Program-made: the position numbers and the translations under genes
From: an uncultured Chloroflexia bacterium
Lineage (GTDB): Bacteria; Chloroflexota; Anaerolineae; Anaerolineales; UBA4823
Reading direction: 5' to 3'
NCBI GenBank assembly: GCA_963840255.1
Contig: CAWIYB010000005.1
Coordinates: forward strand, 384,007 to 448,006
Length of the DNA: 64,000 bases
Part shown: positions 1,795-47,952 of the stretch, one piece after another
Numbering within the stretch: the first letter of the stretch is position 1
Layout of the letters: every line of letters starts with the position of its first letter
The notes under the pieces: generated by a model
Database searches by the model: none
What the model was told of the DNA's origin: nothing
What the model saw: only the letters and a program-made list of their open reading frames with translations

Positions 1795-3095
1795 GCACCG
1801 CCCTACAACCTCCTATTGCTAAACAAACCGAGGAAATTGACATAGCGGAACGCAACAAACGTTATGTTCAAATTGATGCCGTTGGTGTAGGCACCGCCAG
1901 TGCTGCTGCTCCATTTCTTCCTGTGTTTTTAACGCGTCTCGGAGCAACCCCCGTGCAGGTTGGATTATTGACTTCGATGCCAGGTATTACGGGTTTTTTC
2001 ATGGCTATCTGGGTCGGTAGGTTCTTGCAGCGGCAGCGTAGTGTCGTTCCCTGGTTCAGTTTGTCCCGACTTTTGGTCATCTCGGCTTATGCCCTTACTG
2101 GATTGGCACCTTTTTTTGTGCCCGACAACCTCCTAATCCTTGTCATTCTGATTATATGGGCAGCTGTGACCCTTCCCCAAACCATGGTGGCTGTAGGCTT
2201 CTCGGTCGTAATGAACGCTGTCTCGGGACCAGAAGGGCGTTACGATCTGATGAGCCGTCGCTGGTCGATCCTTGGACTCACGACTGCGGTTACTGTCGCC
2301 ATCGCAGGGCAGGTATTAGATCGCATTGGTTTCCACCTTAATTATCAAATTGTTTTTATAGGGTTATCAATGGGGGGTCTGATTAGTTATTATTTTTCAA
2401 GCCGTATAAAAATTCCTGATGCTGAGCCTGTGGAAATTGTAACTCATCATTCATTCAAATCGAGCTTGAATGAATATTACCAGTTGATCAATTCATCGCC
2501 TGATTTTGTTTCCTTCACACTAAAACGTTTTGTATATCTCTTTGGAATTACTTTAGCGACCCCCTTATTCCCGCTCTATTTTGTGCGGGAATTAAATGCC
2601 TCAGATGCCTGGATAGGATTATTGTACACAGCCCAAACAGCTGTCTTGGTAGTGGGATATTTCTTCTGGACCCGCCAATCCCGTCGAAAAGGATCCAGGT
2701 TTGTCTTGCTAATTACAACTTTTTGTGTAGCTTTATATCCCGGATTAGTAGCTTTAACCAACAATCAAACCATGATTTTTATCTTTTCAACAACAGCGGG
2801 GATATTTCAGGCAGGTATCGATCTGGTATTTTTCGATGAGCTGATGAAAACCATCCCACCACGTTATAGCCCCACTTTCGTTTCTCTCGCTCAAAGTATT
2901 CAATATCTTTCCGCAATCGTGGCGCCTATAGCAGGTACATTCCTGGCTGCATATTTCGGGTTAACCACTGCCCTTCTGTTTAGTACAGGAGTACGTTTGG
3001 TCGGATTTATTTTATTTGCCCGGCAAGACCATCGACCAGTAAATTTATATCCGCCTACTGAAATCCAACCTTCCGAAAATAGTTCGACAGATTAA
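1791..3095 (+). CDS. MFS-type transporter
   Basis: 434-aa ORF with about 12 hydrophobic segments. It overlaps the upstream glycosyltransferase by 4 nt. Confidence 0.65.
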   Translation: MSTALQPPIAKQTEEIDIAERNKRYVQIDAVGVGTASAAAPFLPVFLTRLGATPVQVGLLTSMPGITGFFMAIWVGRFLQRQRSVVPWFSLSRLLVISAYALTGLAPFFVPDNLLILVILIIWAAVTLPQTMVAVGFSVVMNAVSGPEGRYDLMSRRWSILGLTTAVTVAIAGQVLDRIGFHLNYQIVFIGLSMGGLISYYFSSRIKIPDAEPVEIVTHHSFKSSLNEYYQLINSSPDFVSFTLKRFVYLFGITLATPLFPLYFVRELNASDAWIGLLYTAQTAVLVVGYFFWTRQSRRKGSRFVLLITTFCVALYPGLVALTNNQTMIFIFSTTAGIFQAGIDLVFFDELMKTIPPRYSPTFVSLAQSIQYLSAIVAPIAGTFLAAYFGLTTALLFSTGVRLVGFILFARQDHRPVNLYPPTEIQPSENSSTD

Positions 3096-3113
3096 ACAGG
3101 TTATAATCGCCTC

Positions 3114-4031
3114 ATGACCAAAGCTAAATCACCAGAGGATTTATCCATTGATGAGCTGAGGCAGCTTTTGGTGGAAAAACGGCGGATGACCCGTATGGAA
3201 CATTTGGAACGTTTTCGCCATACTGGTAGAGTGGTTACAGTAACATCGGATCAAGCAAGCGATCCGCATAGTCACCTCCACTCAAGCGCTGATCCTCAAC
3301 CAAATCTTGAGGACCGTCGACCGCCACTAATTGAGCGAATAAAACACTCTCTGGATCATTTTTTACTCGCTATAGAAATAATTGCAGTAATCGGATTATT
3401 TATAATTATCTTTACCGGTATTCAAATTCTCCGCAATTTAAACGCTCAGTTCAGCGCATCATTAATCCCTTCCACCCTCACGCCTACTCCGCTCATCGTT
3501 CCAGTGATTTTGCCATCTGGGCACACTCCACCGAACTCTCAAAATGGTGCCCAGCCAAACGAAGGTGAAATCCCGTCCCATTTACTCCCGCTCTACCAAT
3601 CAATGGCACAAATACCAATCCCAACACCTGGGCCTGAACAAGCTATCCAAATCCAAATACCAATGATTAATGTTGATGCCCCGGTTGTTCAAGGAGACGG
3701 ATGGGAACAATTAAAAAAGGGAGTTGCTCAACATACCGGTTCAGCGAATCCAGGTCAAACTGGAAATATCGTCTTATCAGCACACAATGATGTTTTTGGT
3801 GAAATATTCCGCTATTTGGATCAATTAAACAAAGGTGACGAAATTATAATTTACACTGCAAACCATACCTTCACCTACATTATTACTGATATAAAAATCG
3901 TTTCCCCCACCAATGTTGAGGTTATGGCAGCCACCTCCAATCCCACGGTGACATTAATATCCTGTTATCCGTACATGGTCGATAACAAACGGATTGTTGT
4001 CCAAGCTAGTTTCGAAAATGGCGATAAATAA
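3114..4031 (+). CDS. Membrane-anchored sortase family transpeptidase
   Basis: Charged N-terminal tail and a single TM segment. The C-terminal domain has LSAHN (catalytic His region) and TLISCYP (TLxTC catalytic Cys motif). Confidence 0.8.
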   Translation: MTKAKSPEDLSIDELRQLLVEKRRMTRMEHLERFRHTGRVVTVTSDQASDPHSHLHSSADPQPNLEDRRPPLIERIKHSLDHFLLAIEIIAVIGLFIIIFTGIQILRNLNAQFSASLIPSTLTPTPLIVPVILPSGHTPPNSQNGAQPNEGEIPSHLLPLYQSMAQIPIPTPGPEQAIQIQIPMINVDAPVVQGDGWEQLKKGVAQHTGSANPGQTGNIVLSAHNDVFGEIFRYLDQLNKGDEIIIYTANHTFTYIITDIKIVSPTNVEVMAATSNPTVTLISCYPYMVDNKRIVVQASFENGDK

Positions 4032-5508: not shown

Positions 5509-6728
5509 GCGTTGAAAAACCCAACTCTGCTTCACCAAAATGGGGCTCAACTTTTAAGATGGTTATTGGACTCATCGTTGCTGGATTGATCATCGCAATG
5601 CTGATTTATTTCCGCTCCATAATAGGGCCATTGATTTTAGCTTTTATCCTTGTATATTTACTGCATCCTGTGGCTGCATCATTAGATACTCACACCAGGC
5701 TCTCATGGCGCGCATCGGTAAACATCATTTATGTGATCCTGTTAATCTTATTGATTGGTGTGTCCACACTGACTGGACTTGCAGCAATACAACAAATTCA
5801 AAGTTTGATTAAGGTCGTTGAACGTTTCGTCACAGAGCTTCCCAATGTTATTGATAAATTATCCAGCCAGATGATAATTCTCGGACCCTACAGGATCGAC
5901 CTCAGTCAATTCACCGACCTTGGACAGTTTGGAGACCAGGTCATAGGTACTTTACAATCACTACTTGGTAGAGCTGGGACAATAGTTGGAACTTTAGCAA
6001 CAGCCACGGCCAGTACAATAGGATGGGGCTTCTTTGTCCTGATTATCTCTTACTTTATTCTGGCAGATGCCGGTAAAGTTCCAAATGTACTCAATTATAT
6101 AGACATTCCTGGATATTCCCAGGATATCCAAAAAATGAGCAAAGCTCTTGGTCGAAGCTGGAACGCATTCCTAAGGGGTCAACTGACCATTGTTATAATG
6201 GTTATCATAAGTTATACGATACTACTATCGATTCTCGGCGTACGATTTGCCTTTGCTATAGCTATCTTAGCAGGATTAGCACGCTTTATACCTTATATTG
6301 GGCCATTGATAACCTACATCGTAATGGGGCTAGTGACCCTTTTTCAAGGGGGTAACTACTTCAATCTTCAGCCGATGTATTACACAGCCCTGTGTATTGG
6401 ACTCTCAATCATCTTGGATCAAGTATATGATAATCTAGTGTCTCCACGCATCATGGGAAAAAGCCTGGGCGTGCACCCAGCGGCTGTGTTGGTGGTCGCT
6501 ATCATAGCGGCCAACCTGATCGGAATTATCGGCTTGGTTTTAGCCGCTCCTGTATTGGCGAGTGCGACAATCGTCGGACGTTATACGATCAATAAAATGC
6601 TCGACAGAGATCCGTGGATTGGTCTCAAGGAAGAATCAGAGCCAATGGGCTTTCATTGGTTCGGGAGAATTTTTAAATACCTGACCGAGTGGTGGAATTC
6701 TAGAAAAAGCAATAAAGTACTTAAATAA
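5505..6728 (+). CDS. AI-2E family transporter (paralog)
   Basis: 407-aa polytopic ORF with ARFIPYIGP and DNLVSPRIMG motifs. It overlaps the previous paralog by 4 nt. Confidence 0.8.
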   Translation: MSVEKPNSASPKWGSTFKMVIGLIVAGLIIAMLIYFRSIIGPLILAFILVYLLHPVAASLDTHTRLSWRASVNIIYVILLILLIGVSTLTGLAAIQQIQSLIKVVERFVTELPNVIDKLSSQMIILGPYRIDLSQFTDLGQFGDQVIGTLQSLLGRAGTIVGTLATATASTIGWGFFVLIISYFILADAGKVPNVLNYIDIPGYSQDIQKMSKALGRSWNAFLRGQLTIVIMVIISYTILLSILGVRFAFAIAILAGLARFIPYIGPLITYIVMGLVTLFQGGNYFNLQPMYYTALCIGLSIILDQVYDNLVSPRIMGKSLGVHPAAVLVVAIIAANLIGIIGLVLAAPVLASATIVGRYTINKMLDRDPWIGLKEESEPMGFHWFGRIFKYLTEWWNSRKSNKVLK

Positions 6729-19100: not shown

Positions 19101-20015
19101 TCACCTCACGGAAGGATCAGAAAGGACAACCCTGGGGCTGGTTTGATCAAGCCGTTGCTCCAGGTGCTTCCATTCTTCGTCGCTGATATCCACGGTATGT
19201 TCTGGTCCCGGAAACTGCCTGGCTTTAACATCGGCTTTGAATTCGGTGAAGGCACGCCGCATCTCGACCGATAGATTGGCGTAATGCTTGACGAATTTAG
19301 GGGTAAAGCGTTCGAAAATACCGAGCAGGTCGTGCGTGACCAATACCTGACCATCACAACCGACGCCCGCACCAATGCCAATGGTGGGGATATCCAGGCG
19401 CTGGGAGACGAGCTCAGCCAGACGCCCAGGGATGGATTCGAGCACCAGGCTGAAGCAGCCGGCGTCTTGCAGTGCCAGGGCATCTTCCAGGAGCTTATAC
19501 GCGGCTTCAGCATCCCGCCCCTGGGGTCGAAAACCGCCGAACTTGTTGACGCTCTGGGGGGTTAACCCAAGGTGACCCATCACAGGGATGCCGGTGCTGA
19601 CGATGAGGCGGATGGTCTCGGCGCGCTCGCTGCCACCTTCTAGTTTGATGGCGTTCATGCCGGCTTCCTGGAGGAAACGACCGGCGTTTTTGACGGCCTC
19701 GGTGGTGGAAACCTGGTAGGACATAAACGGCATGTCACCGACCAATAAGGCGTATTTGGCGCCGCGGGCGACAGCTTTACAGTGGTGGATCATCTCGTCC
19801 ATGGTGACGGGCAGGGTGCTCTCATAGCCCAGCACGACCATGCCGAGGGAATCACCCACCAGGATCATGTCCACACCCACCTGGTCCATGACCAGGGCAG
19901 TGGGATAATCGTAGGCGGTGAGCATGCTGATGGGTTCGTGGCGCGTTTTCATCGCCTGGACGAGGCGAGTGGTAACTTTCTTACGTTCCTCTGTAGGATT
20001 TGGGGTTACTGACAT
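19101..20015 (-). CDS. panB: 3-methyl-2-oxobutanoate hydroxymethyltransferase
   Basis: 304 aa with MLTAYDYPTA, LVGDSLGMVV and KLEGG motifs. Confidence 0.93.
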   Translation of the reverse strand: MSVTPNPTEERKKVTTRLVQAMKTRHEPISMLTAYDYPTALVMDQVGVDMILVGDSLGMVVLGYESTLPVTMDEMIHHCKAVARGAKYALLVGDMPFMSYQVSTTEAVKNAGRFLQEAGMNAIKLEGGSERAETIRLIVSTGIPVMGHLGLTPQSVNKFGGFRPQGRDAEAAYKLLEDALALQDAGCFSLVLESIPGRLAELVSQRLDIPTIGIGAGVGCDGQVLVTHDLLGIFERFTPKFVKHYANLSVEMRRAFTEFKADVKARQFPGPEHTVDISDEEWKHLEQRLDQTSPRVVLSDPSVR

Positions 20016-20126
20016 GGTACCCTCCTTTCGTTGTTATGGTAGGGGCCAAAGGATTGGAATTTTTGTTGCTGCATCCCAGTCGGTAAAGATCTGGGTGACT
20101 GGATTAATTATACTATTATTGGGGAT

Positions 20127-20198
20127 AGGCATTTAGGTAATTAGGCAATCAGGTAATTAGGTAATTAGGTAATTAGGTAATTAGGTAATTAGGTGAAT
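20127..20198. repeat. Tandem octamer array, AGGTAATT x 9
   Basis: Read directly: aggcattt aggtaatt aggcaatc aggtaatt x5 aggtgaat. It lies about 110 bp upstream of the panB start and belongs to the same motif family as the arrays at 44636-44722 and 45222-45268. Confidence 0.9.
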
Positions 20199-21166
20199 TG
20201 ATGTTTTTTTTCAGATAAATTACGCCAATCGTATCCTAAAAAATCGAAGAGGAACGACTATTCTATTGTCAGGCTGAGCAGGTTCAGTTGAGGCAAGTGA
20301 ATGACAGTCCGAGAATTAATAAAAAAACATAAATTCAAATACATTCAATTCTCTGATGGGCTGAGAGATTTGGGCGGGAAATGGATTGGTGCAGATAGAC
20401 GGGATCGCATGGAAGAAATGAGGAATATTTTTCCTATTCTATTATAGCACATTTGTTCTAATTGTCAAGAGTAATTACTCACCAGAATCGATAATAACGG
20501 TAGATCATGAGTTGTGCCAAGGGAAGATTGCTTCGACAAAAGGCGTCTCGCAATGACAGAACATTTCTTGAATTTCTAAACTATGACCCTTGAAAGCGTT
20601 AGAGTGAACTCGGTGAGAAGTTACTGTCAAGAGGGAATTTTGGGAGGGGGTATACGATAGAGAAAAATAATGTCACAACGAGTTGTCAAACATTCAGACT
20701 GTCTCACCACCATCCAGGGGCCTGATATGGTATTTATCCGAAAGCAGATTCACGGGGGAAGAAGGAAAACACCAGCGCAGTAGCATTGTTGTCTTCCCAG
20801 AACATCTTCAAAACTTTGTTAAGGTATTACAGAAAAGTATAAGCTCTCTAAATCAAGGTTAATCATAATATTGCTTTGATAGTATTCTTAAAAATATTCT
20901 CAATCCGGAATCGCCCAAACTGGCTAATCAGCTCACACTATCCGGGTAGTTACTTGCGCTTTAGTCGAGCCACACCTGTTACCTGCTCCATACCAACCAG
21001 TATGGCAAAACCTGTTCAGCAAAGCAACCACCACTCCACCTAGATCCCGTAATAACCCGCTTATGTTCTTAACCCCGCTCCATCACCAGGTCTTCACTTT
21101 ACTAAGGTCACCTGCAATGGGTAATTAAGCCCCCACAATCTATTCGCCGATACTCTGCAAAATATC

Positions 21167-43275: not shown

Positions 43276-43303
43276 TTGACAGAAAATCACAATTGTCGAT
43301 AAT
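43276..43303 (+). promoter_or_regulatory. Candidate sigma-70 promoter for the pheST leader
   Basis: TTGACA (43276-43281), a 16-nt spacer, then GATAAT (43298-43303), just upstream of the T-box leader. Confidence 0.5.
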
Positions 43304-43319
43304 AGGGAGAACAAGAATA

Positions 43320-43590
43320 AAGGCTTAGAAAGAGGAAAGTAGCTGGATCGGAACCAACAGGGAAGTGTTGGGCAGAGACTGAGACCCCACCGGGTAATGT
43401 TCCAGCGAAGTTCCCTCCGGAGCCGTCTGCGTGAATGGGATACCTGCTAGTAGCGCGGAACGCAGCCCAGGCGTTATTTTGGGAGCCGATCGCCAAAAGG
43501 TCGTCGGAAGAAGTGGGTCGCAGCTGCGACCAATAAGGGTGGTACCGCGGGAAACGCCTCCCGTCCCTTATCGGGGCGGGATTTTAATTA
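43320..43590 (+). promoter_or_regulatory. T-box leader (tRNA-Phe sensing) with intrinsic terminator
   Basis: Hallmark T-box sequence AATAAGGGTGGTACCGCGGGAA at 43532-43553. A terminator stem CCCGTCCC/GGGGCGGG followed by ATTTT lies at 43559-43585. AGTA and AGAGA-like boxes occur upstream, and a TTC (Phe) codon sits in GAAGTTCCC at 43411-43413. The downstream gene is pheS. Confidence 0.85.
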
Positions 43591-43603
43591 ATAGGAGGTG
43601 ACC

Positions 43604-44629
43604 ATGTTAGCAGAATTAAACCGGATTGAGCAGCACGCACTCAAAGCTTTGGAGGCCACCCAGGATGAAACCAGCCTGGAACTCTGGCGGGTAGCTTACC
43701 TGGGTCGGTCTGCACCATTAATGCCCATCTTCGACCAGCTGGGAAAACTCTCCAAGGAGGAAAGACCAGCCGTCGGAAGGCGTGCAAATGAGGTGAAACA
43801 AGTCTTGGAAGCTGCGTACTCAGCCCGGCTGAAAGCTTTACGCCAATCAAGCCTGCAACACTCGCTGCAGTCAGCGCGTCTGGATGTTACCCTTCCCGGG
43901 CGAGATTTCCCGATCGGGCGGCTCCATCCTGCCACCATCTCGATGCGCAGAGTAATACGCGCCTTCGCCGATATGGGGTTCCAAGTTTACCGCTCTCCGG
44001 AAGCAGAAACGGATGATTATAACTTTAGTCTGCTTAATATGCCTCCAAACCACCCGGCGCGGGATATGTATGACACGTTCTATACCAGCATGCCCAACAT
44101 CTCTCTACGTCCGCATACCTCTCCGGGCCAGATCCATGTGATGCGGCAATATGCGCCAGAACCCATCCGGGCGATCCTGCCAGGGATGTGCTACCGGTAT
44201 GAACAGATAAACGCACGCCATGAAACCCAGTTTTATCAGCTCGAAGTGCTCGCAGTGGGTATTAACATCACCCTCGGTGACCTGAAAGGTACCCTGGGCG
44301 ATTTAGCTCACCGCCTGTTTGGCCAAAATATCCGCACCCGGTTCAGAGCGTCCTACTTCCCATTTACCGAACCGAGTGCTGAGTTTGACTTTGAATGCCT
44401 CATATGCAGTGGTAAAGGATGCCCGGTCTGCAGCTGGTCTGGCTGGCTAGAGATTGGAGGCTGCGGTATGGTGCACCCGACGGTGCTGCAAAATGGAGGC
44501 TATAATCCGGAAATTTTTTCGGGCTTCGCCGCTGGTTTGGGTATGGAACGGATGATGATGCTGAAACACCGCATCGAAGATATACGCAATTTCTGGGCGA
44601 ATGATATGCGCTTTTTGGAGCAGTTCTAA
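43604..44629 (+). CDS. pheS: Phenylalanine--tRNA ligase alpha subunit
   Basis: About 341 aa with class II motifs (HPARDMYDTFY, FRASYFPFTEPSAEFD, GFAAGLGMERM). ATG 43604 is preferred because AGGAGG (43593-43598) lies 5 nt upstream. The track's GTG 43598 overlaps that Shine-Dalgarno sequence. Confidence 0.95.
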   Translation: MLAELNRIEQHALKALEATQDETSLELWRVAYLGRSAPLMPIFDQLGKLSKEERPAVGRRANEVKQVLEAAYSARLKALRQSSLQHSLQSARLDVTLPGRDFPIGRLHPATISMRRVIRAFADMGFQVYRSPEAETDDYNFSLLNMPPNHPARDMYDTFYTSMPNISLRPHTSPGQIHVMRQYAPEPIRAILPGMCYRYEQINARHETQFYQLEVLAVGINITLGDLKGTLGDLAHRLFGQNIRTRFRASYFPFTEPSAEFDFECLICSGKGCPVCSWSGWLEIGGCGMVHPTVLQNGGYNPEIFSGFAAGLGMERMMMLKHRIEDIRNFWANDMRFLEQF

Positions 44630-44635
44630 GTAGTA

Positions 44636-44722
44636 GGCGATCAGGGATCAGGCAATAAGGTATCAGGTAATAAGGTAACAGGTGATAAGGTATCAGGTAA
44701 TTAGGTAACAGGTAATCAGGAT
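44636..44722. repeat. Tandem GGTAAT-type array (alternating 8/7-nt units, 15-nt period)
   Basis: ggcgatca gggatca ggcaataa ggtatca ggtaataa ggtaaca ggtgataa ggtatca ggtaatta ggtaaca ggtaatca gg. It begins 7 nt after the pheS stop. Confidence 0.9.
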
Positions 44723-44759
44723 TTGATGATAATTCGAAAGAAGATGCTCGTGGTGATTT

Positions 44760-45221
44760 ATGACTGAAGACAAAGGATTGGAATCATTACAAGTATGGCA
44801 GAGGGCGATGAGCTTTGCGATAAAGATTCAAGCTGATGTCATGCCATTTTTACCGCCTGAAGAAAAATGGGCATTGGCGCAACAATTACGCCGCGCAGTT
44901 CAGAGCATTCCTGGAAATATTGCCGAAGGATACGGACGATATTACTATCAGGAAAGCATCCGATTCTGCTATATTGCCCGAGGTTCACTCGAAGAATCGT
45001 ATACGTACCTAACTCTTGCTAATAAACTCGGATATCTGCCCGAAGAAACCTTTCCTTCTATTATTAATGAGATTATTGAAATACGCCGTATGCTAAACGG
45101 ATATATTACCTTTCTTAAGAAAAGTAAACGTGGTGAAAATGAGCCTGGAAGTATCCATTTGGTCAAAGAAGATTCTATTGAGTATTTCATTGACCCGACT
45201 CTAGATGATTCGACGACTTAA
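44760..45221 (+). CDS. Four-helix-bundle protein (23S rRNA intervening-sequence protein family)
   Basis: 153 aa. The segment LQVWQRAMSFA..EEKWALAQQLRRAVQSIPGNIAEGYGR..FCYIARGSLEESYTYLTLANKLGYL..MLNGYI matches the family consensus along its whole length. Confidence 0.88.
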   Translation: MTEDKGLESLQVWQRAMSFAIKIQADVMPFLPPEEKWALAQQLRRAVQSIPGNIAEGYGRYYYQESIRFCYIARGSLEESYTYLTLANKLGYLPEETFPSIINEIIEIRRMLNGYITFLKKSKRGENEPGSIHLVKEDSIEYFIDPTLDDSTT

Positions 45222-45268
45222 ATTCCTGATTACCTAAGTGCCTGATTGACTAAGTGACTAATTACCTG
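45222..45268. repeat. Inverted copy of the GGTAAT-type array
   Basis: aattCCTGATTACCTaagtgcctgattgactaagtgactaATTACCTGAtg is the reverse complement of the upstream unit family. CCTGATTACCT (45226-45236) is the exact complement of AGGTAATCAGG at 44710-44720. Confidence 0.8.
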
Positions 45269-45309
45269 ATGACAAAATTGTTTTTTTCTAATATATCGGA
45301 GGAATCAAT

Positions 45310-47952
45310 ATGCTCGTTCCCATTTCATGGTTAAAAGATTTCGTTGATGTTACCATCCCACTCCCCGAGCTTGCCCGGCGTCTGACCATGGCAGGATTGG
45401 AAGTGGAGCACGTGACTTATATTGGTCTTCCACTGCCACAAGCAGATTCCTCCGGGCAAGAGCCTGCAACCGATACTGCCGTAGTCAACAGCTCAGGCTT
45501 AGCCTGGGAGGCGGACAAAATCGTTACCGCTTCGGTGTCAGAGGTCATGCCACACCCCAATGCCGACCGATTAGTATTATGTAAGCTGTACGACGGTGAT
45601 CGAGAACATATCGTGCTCACCGGAGCACCCAACTTATATCCATACAAAGGGTTGGGAATGCTCCCCAAACCCCTCAAAGTGGCTTACGCCCGGCAAGGAG
45701 CCCGTATCTATGATGGTCATCAGCCCGGACAGGTACTGACCACCCTCAAACCAGCAAAAATCCGCGGGATTGAATCGTATTCGATGATTTGTTCTGAGAA
45801 AGAGCTCGGCATCTCGGAGGACCACGAAGGGGTGATCATCCTGGACGACGATGCACCCGTGGGGGTGCCATTAGCGGACTATCTGGGGGATGCTGTTTTG
45901 GACATTAAAATCCTACCCAATATTTCCCGGGCTGCCAATATTCTGGGAGTTGCGCGGGAGGTAGCAGCACTGACCGGGGTACCTTTGCACATCCCTGAAG
46001 GTTTTTATGATGGTCCGGCTGAGGGACCCGCTATCACTGGAAAAGCCGCGATTGAGATCTCCAATCCGGAGCTGAACCCACGCTTCGTGCTTGGTTTGAT
46101 ACAAAATGTAAGCATCCGACATAGCCCTTATTGGATGCAGCTCAGGCTAAAGCTGGCAGGGATGCGCCCGATCAACAATATCGTGGATGTCACCAATTAT
46201 GCCATGCTCGAAGTGGGTGAGCCGCTACATGCCTTCGATTATGACGTGCTGGTGCAGCGCGCTGGAGGGATTTCACCCACCATCATCACACGCACTGCCC
46301 AAACAAATGAACGCCTGACTACATTGGATGGTGTTGACCGCCCCCTCAATCCATTCACCGTCCTGGTATGCGATACGGCTGGTTCCCTATCCATCGCCGG
46401 GGTGATGGGCGGAGCCGAATCGGAGGTGTTCGAAGCAACAGCAAATCTCAATGATAACCCGGGTGAACCACAGGGCGACGAGCCAGCTGCGCGCACGAAA
46501 AGCACTACCAGCATCCTGCTCGAAGGGGCGGCATGGAATAACATCAATATCCGCAAGACCGTGGCTGCTCAAAGGCTCCAATCTGAGGCGGCATTCCGTT
46601 TTTCGCGCGGCGTTCACCCAGCCATGGCGGAACGGGGAGTACGGCGAGGATTAAAACTAATGCACCAGCTGGCTGGTGGGGTGGTCTACCAGGGATTAGT
46701 TGACAATTATCCTCTTCACCCAAATGATCCGGTAAATGAAATTACTCCCGATGAAGTTGAGCGGGTGTTGGGAATCAAGCTCAGTGTACACGAGATCATC
46801 AAGATCTTGCAAAGCCTGGAGTTCAAGTGTGAGCTGGTTACCGACCAGCCTGCGCAGGTGATTATCCGCGCTTACTCGCCCGACCATCGTTTGGATATTA
46901 ACCAGGAACTGGTTGGTAAGGCTGATCTTTTGGAGGAGATAGCCCGCGTCTATGGTTATGACCGCATCCCTGAGACCCGCCTGACTTCAGAACTACCGCC
47001 CCAACGGAGCAATCCAACCCTTGAGGGAGAGGAACGCATCATCGACCGCCTGGTCGATTTGGGTCTGCAGGAAATTATCAGTCACCGCCAGACCACGCCC
47101 GAGAGGGAAGCACGGCGTCTTGCTCCGGGAACACCGCCGGATGACCAACCTTACCTGCGCATCATCAATCCAATCGCCTCCGACCGGGTGGTCATGCGGC
47201 ACAGTGTGCTCAACAGCGTGTTTGAAGCCGTGGAACGGAACGCGCGCATCCGCCAACACATCGCTTTCTTTGAAGTTGGACCAATCTTTATGGCTTCGGA
47301 GGCGGGAGAACGTCCTGATGAACTGCATCGCCTGGCAATCGTACTCACCGGTGTGCGTTCACTGCCAGGCTGGCAAAAACAATCCGAGGGCGTGATGGAT
47401 TTTTATGACCTTAAAGGGATCATTACAGGATTGATGGAGGGGCTACACATCGATTTCGAGGTTGAACCGGCTGATCACCCAACTTTTCATCCTGGTAAGA
47501 CTGCACACATCAAAGTTGGGGAGCAACAAATCGGTGTGTTCGGGGAGGTACACCCCCTGGTGCATGAAAAATACGATTTCTCACCGAATCCGGTGGTTGC
47601 GGCTGATATTAACCTGGACCTGCTCATCAGTCTGGTGCCAGAGCGATATGATATGCAGCCAGTGCCTGCGTTCCCGCCCGTGCTAGAAGACCTGGCATTG
47701 GTAGTCGATGAAGAGCTACCTGCAGGGCGGGTAGCCGAGGTAATCAAGCAGGCAGCAGGTAAAATCGTCTCGAATATCACCTTGTTCGATGTTTACCGCA
47801 GTGAGCAGATCGGCAAGGGGAAGAAGAGTCTCGCATATTCGCTTAACTACCAGTCAACTGAAAAAACCCTGACCGATAATGATGTCGCCCAGATCCGCCA
47901 GCGTATCATCCGCAGGTTGGACCAGGAGCTGGGAGCAAAATTACGCGCATGA
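45310..47952 (+). CDS. pheT: Phenylalanine--tRNA ligase beta subunit
   Basis: 880 aa with N-terminal ISWLKDFV, a tRNA-binding domain, B3/4 and B5 domains and a C-terminal FDX-ACB domain (DLALVVDE..ITLFDVYRSEQIG). GGAGG lies upstream. Confidence 0.95.
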   Translation: MLVPISWLKDFVDVTIPLPELARRLTMAGLEVEHVTYIGLPLPQADSSGQEPATDTAVVNSSGLAWEADKIVTASVSEVMPHPNADRLVLCKLYDGDREHIVLTGAPNLYPYKGLGMLPKPLKVAYARQGARIYDGHQPGQVLTTLKPAKIRGIESYSMICSEKELGISEDHEGVIILDDDAPVGVPLADYLGDAVLDIKILPNISRAANILGVAREVAALTGVPLHIPEGFYDGPAEGPAITGKAAIEISNPELNPRFVLGLIQNVSIRHSPYWMQLRLKLAGMRPINNIVDVTNYAMLEVGEPLHAFDYDVLVQRAGGISPTIITRTAQTNERLTTLDGVDRPLNPFTVLVCDTAGSLSIAGVMGGAESEVFEATANLNDNPGEPQGDEPAARTKSTTSILLEGAAWNNINIRKTVAAQRLQSEAAFRFSRGVHPAMAERGVRRGLKLMHQLAGGVVYQGLVDNYPLHPNDPVNEITPDEVERVLGIKLSVHEIIKILQSLEFKCELVTDQPAQVIIRAYSPDHRLDINQELVGKADLLEEIARVYGYDRIPETRLTSELPPQRSNPTLEGEERIIDRLVDLGLQEIISHRQTTPEREARRLAPGTPPDDQPYLRIINPIASDRVVMRHSVLNSVFEAVERNARIRQHIAFFEVGPIFMASEAGERPDELHRLAIVLTGVRSLPGWQKQSEGVMDFYDLKGIITGLMEGLHIDFEVEPADHPTFHPGKTAHIKVGEQQIGVFGEVHPLVHEKYDFSPNPVVAADINLDLLISLVPERYDMQPVPAFPPVLEDLALVVDEELPAGRVAEVIKQAAGKIVSNITLFDVYRSEQIGKGKKSLAYSLNYQSTEKTLTDNDVAQIRQRIIRRLDQELGAKLRA

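Follow-up and report, generated by a model that had tools for sequence, protein, structure and literature searches.

A PF05635 four-helix-bundle cassette bracketed by inverted tandem arrays between pheS and pheT in an uncultured Chloroflexia bacterium

The pheS-pheT locus and its four-helix-bundle gene

The window analyzed herein, a 64,000-nt stretch of DNA from an uncultured Chloroflexia bacterium (GenBank assembly GCA_963840255.1, contig CAWIYB010000005.1, positions 384,007 to 448,006), carries on its forward strand pheS (43598-44629; 343 aa, PF01409 E = 1.8e-82, with a TAA stop codon at 44627-44629) and pheT (45310-47952; 880 aa, PF17759, PF03483, PF03147 and others). As proposed in an earlier note on this DNA, the two genes are separated by a spacer of 680 bp (44630-45309) that holds a 153-aa four-helix-bundle gene on the same strand (44760-45221), and the assignment was borne out by matches to PF05635 (E = 6.8e-34; 116.7 bits against a cut-off of 33.8) and TIGR02436 (E = 7.5e-33; 113 bits against a cut-off of 24). 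This gene is the sole ORF of the spacer, its immediate neighbours being pheS and pheT.

Upstream of pheS on the plus strand lies a T-box leader (RF00230, 43317-43571; 109 bits against a gathering score of 93) with its terminator hairpin at 43559-43581, preceded by a putative sigma-70-like promoter, TTGACA-16-GATAAT (43276-43303), assigned by its 11/12 match to the consensus. On the plus strand of the spacer, no terminator-like site was found, and the single promoter-like match in the spacer was at chance level. Since the T-box and the promoter are located upstream and the spacer shows no terminator, pheS, the cassette and pheT most likely constitute one T-box-controlled unit. A putative Shine-Dalgarno-like site, GTGGTGAT (44750-44757, plus strand), can be read from the sequence 3 nt short of the ATG of the four-helix-bundle gene, and pheT has its own Shine-Dalgarno sequence, GGAGG, at 45298-45302 of the plus strand. 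An Rfam scan of the window returned the T-box only, without any rRNA, and neither a second copy nor near-identical copies of the four-helix-bundle gene were found in the window. Elsewhere in the window, an orphan array of eight TTAGGTAA units was observed at 20126-20199. It was considered as a candidate second cassette and rejected, as it showed neither a four-helix-bundle remnant at E <= 10 nor an inverted partner.

The PF05635 domain is a four-helix bundle of about 120 aa, and in the window protein the helices were assigned to residues 11-30, 36-58, 63-89 and 97-122, followed by an acidic C-terminal tail (residues 123-153) that is predicted to be disordered. An AlphaFold2 monomer model likewise consisted of four helices (pLDDT 79.7), and a Foldseek comparison of it gave TM scores of 0.92 (target-normalised; rmsd 0.9) with Xcc0516 (PDB ID: 2GSC), which was also matched by phmmer (E = 1.3e-13), and of 0.88 with BT_0352 (PDB ID: 2RLD). 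Both depositions contain five chains each. The Avd protein of diversity-generating retroelements (DGR) was matched with TM scores of 0.73-0.78 (target-normalised) at approximately 12% identity. The motif R-x3-S-x3-N-x2-E, reported as conserved in the family (PMC3936711), is present as RAVQSIPGNIAE at residues 45-56; S49, N53 and E56 were invariant in both alignments, and R45 was invariant in alignment A2. The protein is acidic (pI 5.0), while the bundle itself is near-neutral. Other than PF05635, no domain was found in the cassette, that is, no transposase, integrase or nuclease. The dN/dS values between the cassette proteins of relatives were as low as 0.05-0.15, indicating that the protein is maintained by purifying selection. 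The family is large, comprising 13,019 clusters at 50% identity (E <= 1e-3), and proteins of this type were first noticed as ORFs inside the intervening sequences (IVSs) of 23S rRNA.

Inverted arrays and the predicted closing stem

The four-helix-bundle gene is bracketed by two tandem arrays. The 5' arm (44635-44722, plus strand), whose onset is 6 nt past the pheS stop, is a G-rich array of alternating 8- and 7-mers of the AGGTAAYAGGTRATA type with about 5-6 double units, and was called by Tandem Repeats Finder at 44643-44720 with a period of 15 (8+7), 5.2 copies and 85% matches, or alternatively at 44635-44720 with a period of 45. The 3' arm (45221-45270, plus strand) is a C-rich array of the CCTGATTACCTAAGTG type with 2.7 copies, whose units are reverse-complementary to those of the 5' arm; the corresponding call was 45225-45267 with a period of 16 and 2.7 copies. 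Within the window, the repeat-unit pattern occurs 9 times against an expectation of 1.04. The claim that an array and its reverse complement flank the gene was thus upheld by Tandem Repeats Finder and by a search for inverted pairs, which placed on top 44710-44724/45221-45235 (15 nt, 93%) and 44692-44704/45258-45270 (13 nt, 100%). As to the exactly complementary innermost units, the position given for AGGTAATCAGG (44710-44720) was correct, while its complement CCTGATTACCT resides at 45225-45235 and not, as had been stated, one base further to the right at 45226-45236.

The same note had envisaged a long stem in the pheST transcript with the whole ORF in its loop, and folding against shuffled controls agreed with this proposal. 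The sense RNA of the entire spacer folded at -182.5 kcal/mol (z = -5.44) with the ORF inside a closed loop, and the arms alone, joined by a short linker, folded at -56.8 kcal/mol (z = -4.3), with none of the 200 shuffles being as good. The duplex of the 5' and 3' arms was calculated to have -53.3 kcal/mol against -31.0 +/- 4.6 kcal/mol for shuffles, and consisted of 60 pairs (18 GC, 32 AU and 10 GU). The predicted closing helix of the sense RNA (44638-45298) comprises about 60-75 flank-to-flank pairs and leaves the 460-nt ORF in the loop. Its outermost predicted pairs, 44638-44641 with 45295-45298, place its onset 9 nt past the pheS stop, and the last pair takes the first G of the pheT GGAGG, which is hence situated directly 3' of the helix. 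The putative Shine-Dalgarno-like site GTGGTGAT falls in the predicted loop, outside the stem. The antisense fold of the spacer was weaker than the sense fold by 23 kcal/mol, with a z of -2.45.

Occurrence in relatives and the level at which the arms may act

The same site was compared in 80 pheS loci from other species, mostly labelled Anaerolineae or other Chloroflexota, among which 75 had a readable spacer. As summarized from these 75 spacers, 59 were empty (short), 11 carried a four-helix-bundle gene and 5 carried other inserts, and every four-helix-bundle match in the 80 loci fell within the pheS-pheT spacer. The nearest relatives, namely L001 and L002 (90-91% PheS identity) together with L004-L009, were all empty with spacers of merely 12-13 bp. 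The empty sites were clean, as had been sought from relatives in the earlier note: they read TTC-TAG-GAGG-N5-6-ATG, so that the pheS stop overlaps the pheT Shine-Dalgarno sequence (TAGGAGG). A metagenome scan yielded 12 further occupied pheST spacers, bringing the total to 24 including the window. In the occupied spacers, the pheS stop is directly followed by a G-rich array, and the array complementary to it terminates shortly ahead of the pheT ribosome-binding site, each cassette having its own complementary unit; the lineage-specific units included AGGTAAT, TTAGGTAC, GAGAATA, GGGCACC, GGGATCA, GTGAGTA and AGGAATC. Among the 12 genome loci with a cassette, the window included, 4 hold pseudogenes, namely L030, L066, L071 and L074, and the arms were decayed in two of these (L030 and L074). 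An array hairpin without an ORF was observed in L070.

On a pheS tree of the 75 species plus the window, the presence and absence of the cassette required at least 9 state changes, and the sister of the window, L002, was empty. Host and cassette similarities correlated only moderately (rho = 0.5). For instance, L071 and L072 are 93% identical in PheST, while their cassette proteins are only 53% identical and their arrays are different, and the L072 cassette is nearest to that of L058, a more distant host. These state changes and host/cassette conflicts indicated, as far as the compared sequences can tell, that the cassette has been gained, lost or replaced repeatedly at this one site. The suggestion that the module might be mobile was in this respect favoured by its distribution, which is patchy and in part conflicts with the host phylogeny. 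At the cassette junctions, no target-site duplication was visible. Recent allelic transfer by homologous recombination was also considered and rejected, as there was no rise in similarity to L003 beside the cassette, and the flanks of the window were closest to L001 and L002 throughout.

We then assessed the bracketed design in a sample of 88 four-helix-bundle genes, which included, besides the window, 77 of 80 metagenome loci and 10 of the 11 occupied genome loci, L052 being cut off by the end of its contig. The proteins share 34-66% identity with the window protein, and most of their genes lie in a different genomic context. Two peptide motifs were used for retrieval, and the sample represents one sector of PF05635. 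When the 160 nt upstream were compared with the reverse complement of the 160 nt downstream, inverted flanks with z > 4 were detected for 58% of the 88 genes and for 2% of 105 same-locus controls (Fisher p = 4e-20), which answered in the affirmative whether other genes of the family carry inverted arrays. The median number of closing pairs between the flanks in the minimum-free-energy folds was 33, compared with 11 for the controls (p = 3e-9). Moreover, when the 5' flank of each locus was matched to the 3' flanks of all 88 loci, its own 3' flank ranked first in 41% of cases, against about 1% expected. Whereas the earlier note had regarded the arrangement as a local oddity, it proved instead to be one instance of an architecture found in most of the sampled relatives. 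Judging from these sequence comparisons, this architecture is widespread among the sampled relatives, and the window cassette represents it in a well-preserved form.

Short-period arrays of any copy number were found upstream of 77 and downstream of 56 of the 88 genes, and those of at least 2.5 copies upstream of 68 and downstream of 47, compared with 22% and 17% of 115 controls, respectively. The period was 7 in 105 of 133 arrays, and a period of 8 marks the window's own clade; the median copy number was 4.2 (interquartile range 3.5-5). The unit GC skew was +0.47 in the 5' arms and -0.43 in the 3' arms, and the trinucleotides AGG, CAG and TCA were enriched 2-3.5 times in the units. GGGGACT-type units, resembling STRR1, were observed in the L141 cassette. 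A role of the heptamer arrays as three-frame translation stops was rejected, a stop trinucleotide being present in 52% of the 5' units against 51% expected.

These values also bear on the notion that the arrays are merely neutral, slippage-prone simple repeats in a permissive spacer, whose complementarity has no function. Short-period arrays do occur beside about 20% of the control genes, an orphan array is located at 20126-20199 of the window, and the arms are weak or decayed in some occupied spacers (L030 and L074), all of which would fit such repeats. In contrast, the complementarity within loci far above that between loci, the 58% to 2% ratio of inverted flanks, the consistent polarity of the GC skew and the decay of arms where the ORF is a pseudogene are all difficult to reconcile with neutrality, and hence we regard this explanation as highly improbable.

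The array statistics are of further relevance to the possibility that the repeats serve as operators, in which the protein, as a pentameric ring, would autoregulate its own synthesis by binding, at the RNA or DNA level, the tandem 7-8-nt units in its 5' leader in a TRAP-like manner. We consider this quite unlikely, and equally so the accompanying arrangement in which each subunit would take one unit and the 3' array would be an anti-operator masking the sites. It agrees with the upstream array being the most widespread feature (77/88 against 22% of controls), with a median copy number suited to a pentamer and the five chains in each of 2GSC and 2RLD, with the enrichment of AGG, CAG and TCA, and with the occurrence of the homologue Avd within an RNA-protein complex (8UB7 and related entries). 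In addition, 28 of the 77 genes having an upstream array lacked a downstream one, implying that the 5' array may have a role of its own. However, cassettes encoding proteins with 50-80% identity and common invariant surface motifs differ almost wholly in their unit sequence, and the acidic protein with its near-neutral bundle is unlike basic nucleic-acid binders.

With respect to gene context, the cassette had the same orientation as the upstream gene in 72 of 76 cases with short gaps to it, and co-directional genes were present on both sides at 52 loci. The flanking ORFs of 10 sampled relatives checked were housekeeping genes, such as tgt-uppP, kamA-aldo/keto reductase, guaA-dnaE, moxR-DUF58, argB and ychF, and certain host sites recurred in different organisms with different arrays (L090/L097, L095/L104 and L124/L150). 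Among 13 loci with ORF-poor flanks, no rRNA context was found, only one tmRNA and one tRNA being detected. Phage carriage was limited to 3 weak matches in IMG/VR. The frequency of stems was 60% with a near co-directional next gene and 64% with a convergent or distant one, and the arms thus belong to the cassette itself. A stem that solely preserves downstream coupling was consequently rejected as a general rule, stems being equally frequent at operon ends.

To discriminate between the RNA and DNA levels, mismatches between the arms were counted in 51 alignments. There were 79 sense and 68 antisense G:U wobbles, a difference that was not significant, and 159 transversions; without an excess of sense G:U, equilibrium selection on an RNA helix gains no support from this count. 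On the other hand, the sense arms folded better than the antisense ones in 57 of 88 loci with a median of 5.3 kcal/mol (p = 0.0045), while control genes gave -0.1 kcal/mol (60 vs 58), and several loci, e.g., L013 and L053, were better folded as antisense. The energy-based test thus gives modest support to the RNA level. The co-orientation with the upstream gene and the lack of signals belonging to the cassette similarly point to the transcript level, as judged from the sequence.

The alternative that the arms operate as DNA, i.e., as terminal inverted repeats made of tandem units in a foldback-type element, inserted and excised via a hairpin or cruciform or by an end-bound protein, has to be weighed against these data and appears unlikely. 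The further supposition that the four-helix-bundle protein could be a mobility or maintenance factor, the RNA stem being a by-product, is held with the same reserve. The patchy presence, in which empty sites are clean and 9 or more gains or losses are required, the different cassettes at the same site of close hosts, the wobble mismatches without strand bias, the arms intrinsic to the cassette regardless of the downstream gene, and the ORF-less array hairpin in L070 are all compatible with DNA arms. Furthermore, long inverted repeats promote deletion through replication slippage, which would explain the frequent clean loss of the cassette. Nevertheless, the cassette has PF05635 alone with no transposase, integrase or nuclease domain, shows no visible target-site duplication and occurs as a single copy in the window without near-identical copies. 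The re-use of a host site across deep divergences is atypical of transposition, and the 72/76 co-orientation together with the folding advantage of the sense strand favours the transcript.

Proposed mechanism and comparison with known systems

Taken together, an IVS-like module in an mRNA operon, as put forward in the earlier note, is the best-supported explanation, and the IVS in the 23S rRNA of Coxiella has the same plan (PMC4990558). We estimate at about even odds (a probability of roughly 0.5) that the element is a promoterless IVS-type cassette on the T-box-controlled pheST transcript, which is looped out by an RNA stem and probably cleaved by RNase III. Its membership in a class of bracketed cassettes is far more secure than this mechanism. 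In the proposed mechanism, the promoterless four-helix-bundle gene, seated exactly between the pheS stop and the pheT Shine-Dalgarno sequence, would be co-transcribed with pheS and pheT under T-box control. The G-rich 5' and C-rich 3' arrays would then pair in the RNA as an imperfect helix, predicted to be about 60 bp, that loops out the 460-nt ORF and would bring the pheS stop beside the pheT ribosome-binding site, an arrangement like that of operons without the cassette. In contrast to the uncoupling of pheS and pheT expression that the earlier note considered possible, this predicted geometry would thus put the two signals next to each other. With the G-rich arm made first, the C-rich arm could pair as soon as it is synthesized, which might limit the exposure of C-rich RNA to Rho. 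By its length, the helix would be of the RNase III substrate type, and a putative cleavage would free the ORF RNA and split the pheS and pheT mRNAs; such cleavage has been shown for the cassette of the same family in Coxiella 23S rRNA. The tandem repeats would offer many pairing registers, and slippage could permit fast concerted turnover of both arms, while the cassette itself presumably comes and goes at this site over evolutionary time.

In the 23S rRNA IVS of Coxiella burnetii, in vitro cleavage of a 28-bp terminal stem by RNase III has been demonstrated, with ends mapped by RACE, and two or three tandem GACAGAT heptamers, strain-variable in copy number, precede the S23p ORF (PMC4990558). 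The rRNA IVSs of Coxiella burnetii and Leptospira (PMC4990558) thus resemble the pheST cassette in that an S23p/PF05635 ORF is enclosed by terminal inverted repeats forming a long stem, that tandem heptamers of variable copy number lie 5' of the ORF (8+7-mers in the window), that there is no promoter of its own and the element rides the host transcript, and that the distribution is sporadic with frequent decay of the ORF. They differ in the host, which is helix 25 or 45 of 23S rRNA in the IVS and pheS-pheT in the cassette, and in the arms, which are a unique stem of 28 bp in the former and 7-8-mer arrays (87 and 47 nt) in the latter. RNase III cleavage has been shown for the IVS and is putative for the pheST cassette, and the window ORF is intact, with dN/dS of 0.05-0.15 among its relatives. 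By location, an rRNA IVS proper was rejected for the window cassette, as its flanks are pheS and pheT. Genes of the PF05635 family have also been reported within insertions in the 16S and 23S rRNA of CPR bacteria (PMC11270868) and within cas operons, e.g., between cmr3 and cmr2 (PMC3936711).

Comparison with the other elements listed below further delimited the cassette. Correia/nemis and ERIC are inverted-repeat elements in operon mRNAs that are cut by RNase III or alter mRNA stability; they are non-coding, about 100-150 bp long and occur as numerous near-identical copies flanked by target-site duplications. They share with the cassette the intergenic insertion into operons and the long mRNA hairpins, which can separate or stabilise flanking cistrons. 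In contrast, the cassette has a conserved protein gene in its loop, one copy in the window and locus-unique arms of tandem arrays. An identity as a MITE (Correia, ERIC) or an IS was therefore rejected on the basis of its protein-coding nature, single window copy and locus-unique arms, with neither a duplication nor a transposase/recombinase. Eukaryotic foldback transposons, which are moved by a transposase, have terminal inverted repeats of short tandem repeats. The likeness lies in inverted-repeat ends that are themselves built from short tandem repeats, but these transposons are eukaryotic, far larger and transposase-driven, whereas the cassette has no such enzyme. DGR Avd (PDB ID: 4DWL and 8UB7) has a fold of the same four-helix-bundle superfamily and acts as a pentamer in an RNA-protein complex. 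It is only about 12% identical and adjoins a reverse transcriptase and template/variable repeats, whereas the cassette adjoins pheS and pheT with no other ORF in the spacer, and an assignment as Avd was rejected by this context. Finally, the cyanobacterial STRR and the TAACTGA heptamers of Beggiatoaceae (PMC4679880) are likewise tandem 7-nt intergenic units, but the descriptions are of direct repeats, with neither a partner array nor a gene enclosed by them. Apart from that on the Coxiella IVS, our literature search, from which most subscription journals were left out, turned up no paper on inverted heptamer arrays flanking PF05635 genes.

For more than 30 years, studies of IVS elements and of the S23p ORF they carry have been confined almost entirely to rRNA, and to our knowledge no function has been assigned to either. 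Their design proves to be common in protein-coding operons, such as pheST, tgt-uppP, guaA-dnaE, moxR-DUF58 and others. On a wider and, in our judgement, doubtful extrapolation, PF05635 cassettes could be a very large unrecognised class of operon-embedded elements, each with a promoterless gene, self-complementary heptamer arrays and a ring protein that recognises its own arrays and helps to process, maintain or spread the cassette, such that rRNA IVSs, many orphan heptamer arrays of the STRR type and the '23S_rRNA_IVP' genes in cas operons would be one system, to which DGR Avd perhaps traces its origin. Some of the orphan heptamer arrays found in intergenic regions might be explained by such cassettes, and the findings suggest that the reported links of four-helix-bundle genes to CRISPR-cas loci may reflect cassette insertion and not function. 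For the host, the question is raised of how 1:1 synthesis of PheS and PheT persists with a 680-nt module placed at the stop/Shine-Dalgarno overlap. As the arm pairs co-vary within a locus and differ between loci, the cassettes would provide many natural replicates for dissecting the roles of the stem and the protein.

Transcription and C-terminal tail of the pheS-pheT cassette

Upstream of pheS (window 43276-43581), a promoter close to consensus precedes a T-box leader (RF00230) with its terminator hairpin, and therefore the four-helix-bundle cassette lying between pheS and pheT is transcribed under T-box control, with tRNA-Phe charging presumably serving as the controlling signal.

In the cassette protein, helix 4 is followed by a tail (residues 123-153; window 45130-45218) found in the pheST clade. 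The tail starts with a conserved basic-then-EPG motif, KxSKRGxNEPG, which is followed by an acidic stretch predicted to be disordered, and its residues K123, G125, E128, P129 and G130 were invariant among 40 sequences. Most of the more distant relatives aligned to the window protein only to approximately residue 115-130, so the tail is probably missing from them, as judged from these alignments.

Elsewhere in the window, an orphan array at 20126-20199, composed of TTAGGTAA x8, has the same unit type as the 5' arm of the cassette. It adjoins panB (19101-20015, minus strand) and borders a region of roughly 1 kb with few ORFs (20200-21160). Neither an inverted partner nor a four-helix-bundle remnant was found for this array in the window.

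Cassette divergence and other inserts in the pheS-pheT spacer

While PheST of the hosts of two pheS loci, L071 and L072, were 93% identical, their cassette proteins shared only 53% identity, and the spacer arrays were unrelated (GGGGATCAGGG in L071 versus GGGCACCGGGG in L072). The L071 copy of the cassette carries an in-frame stop.

In L070, another pheS locus, a G-rich ATTAGGT x5 array, a 10-nt loop and the complement of the array (6216-6310) are arranged without an ORF between them, directly before the pheT start codon. This hairpin looks like an ORF-less "solo stem", and short rRNA intervening sequences likewise have no ORF. In Thermoflexus (L075, 5029-6056; L080, 3112-4118), pheS and pheT are separated by another kind of insert, roughly 1 kb long, whose 141-aa ORF appears on visual inspection to resemble a minimal nucleotidyltransferase. 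Further, different inserts were observed in L025, L049 and L070, which makes the pheS-pheT spacer a hot spot of small insertions.

Arrays at other four-helix-bundle loci

Flanking arrays also accompany related four-helix-bundle genes in metagenome loci. In the 2980-3760 region of L103, a cassette with matched CGTAAGT/ACTTACG arrays is followed, after 50 nt, by a tmRNA gene (3410-3760). Within each flank of the gene in L101 and L123, the repeat unit occurs in both orientations, so that either side could form local hairpins besides the long-range stem. The arrays of L141 are of the GGGGACT/AGTCCCC type, similar to the heptamer CCCCAGT of STRR1, one of the cyanobacterial intergenic tandem repeats. 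Given this likeness, some orphan intergenic heptamer arrays might have been derived from four-helix-bundle cassettes.
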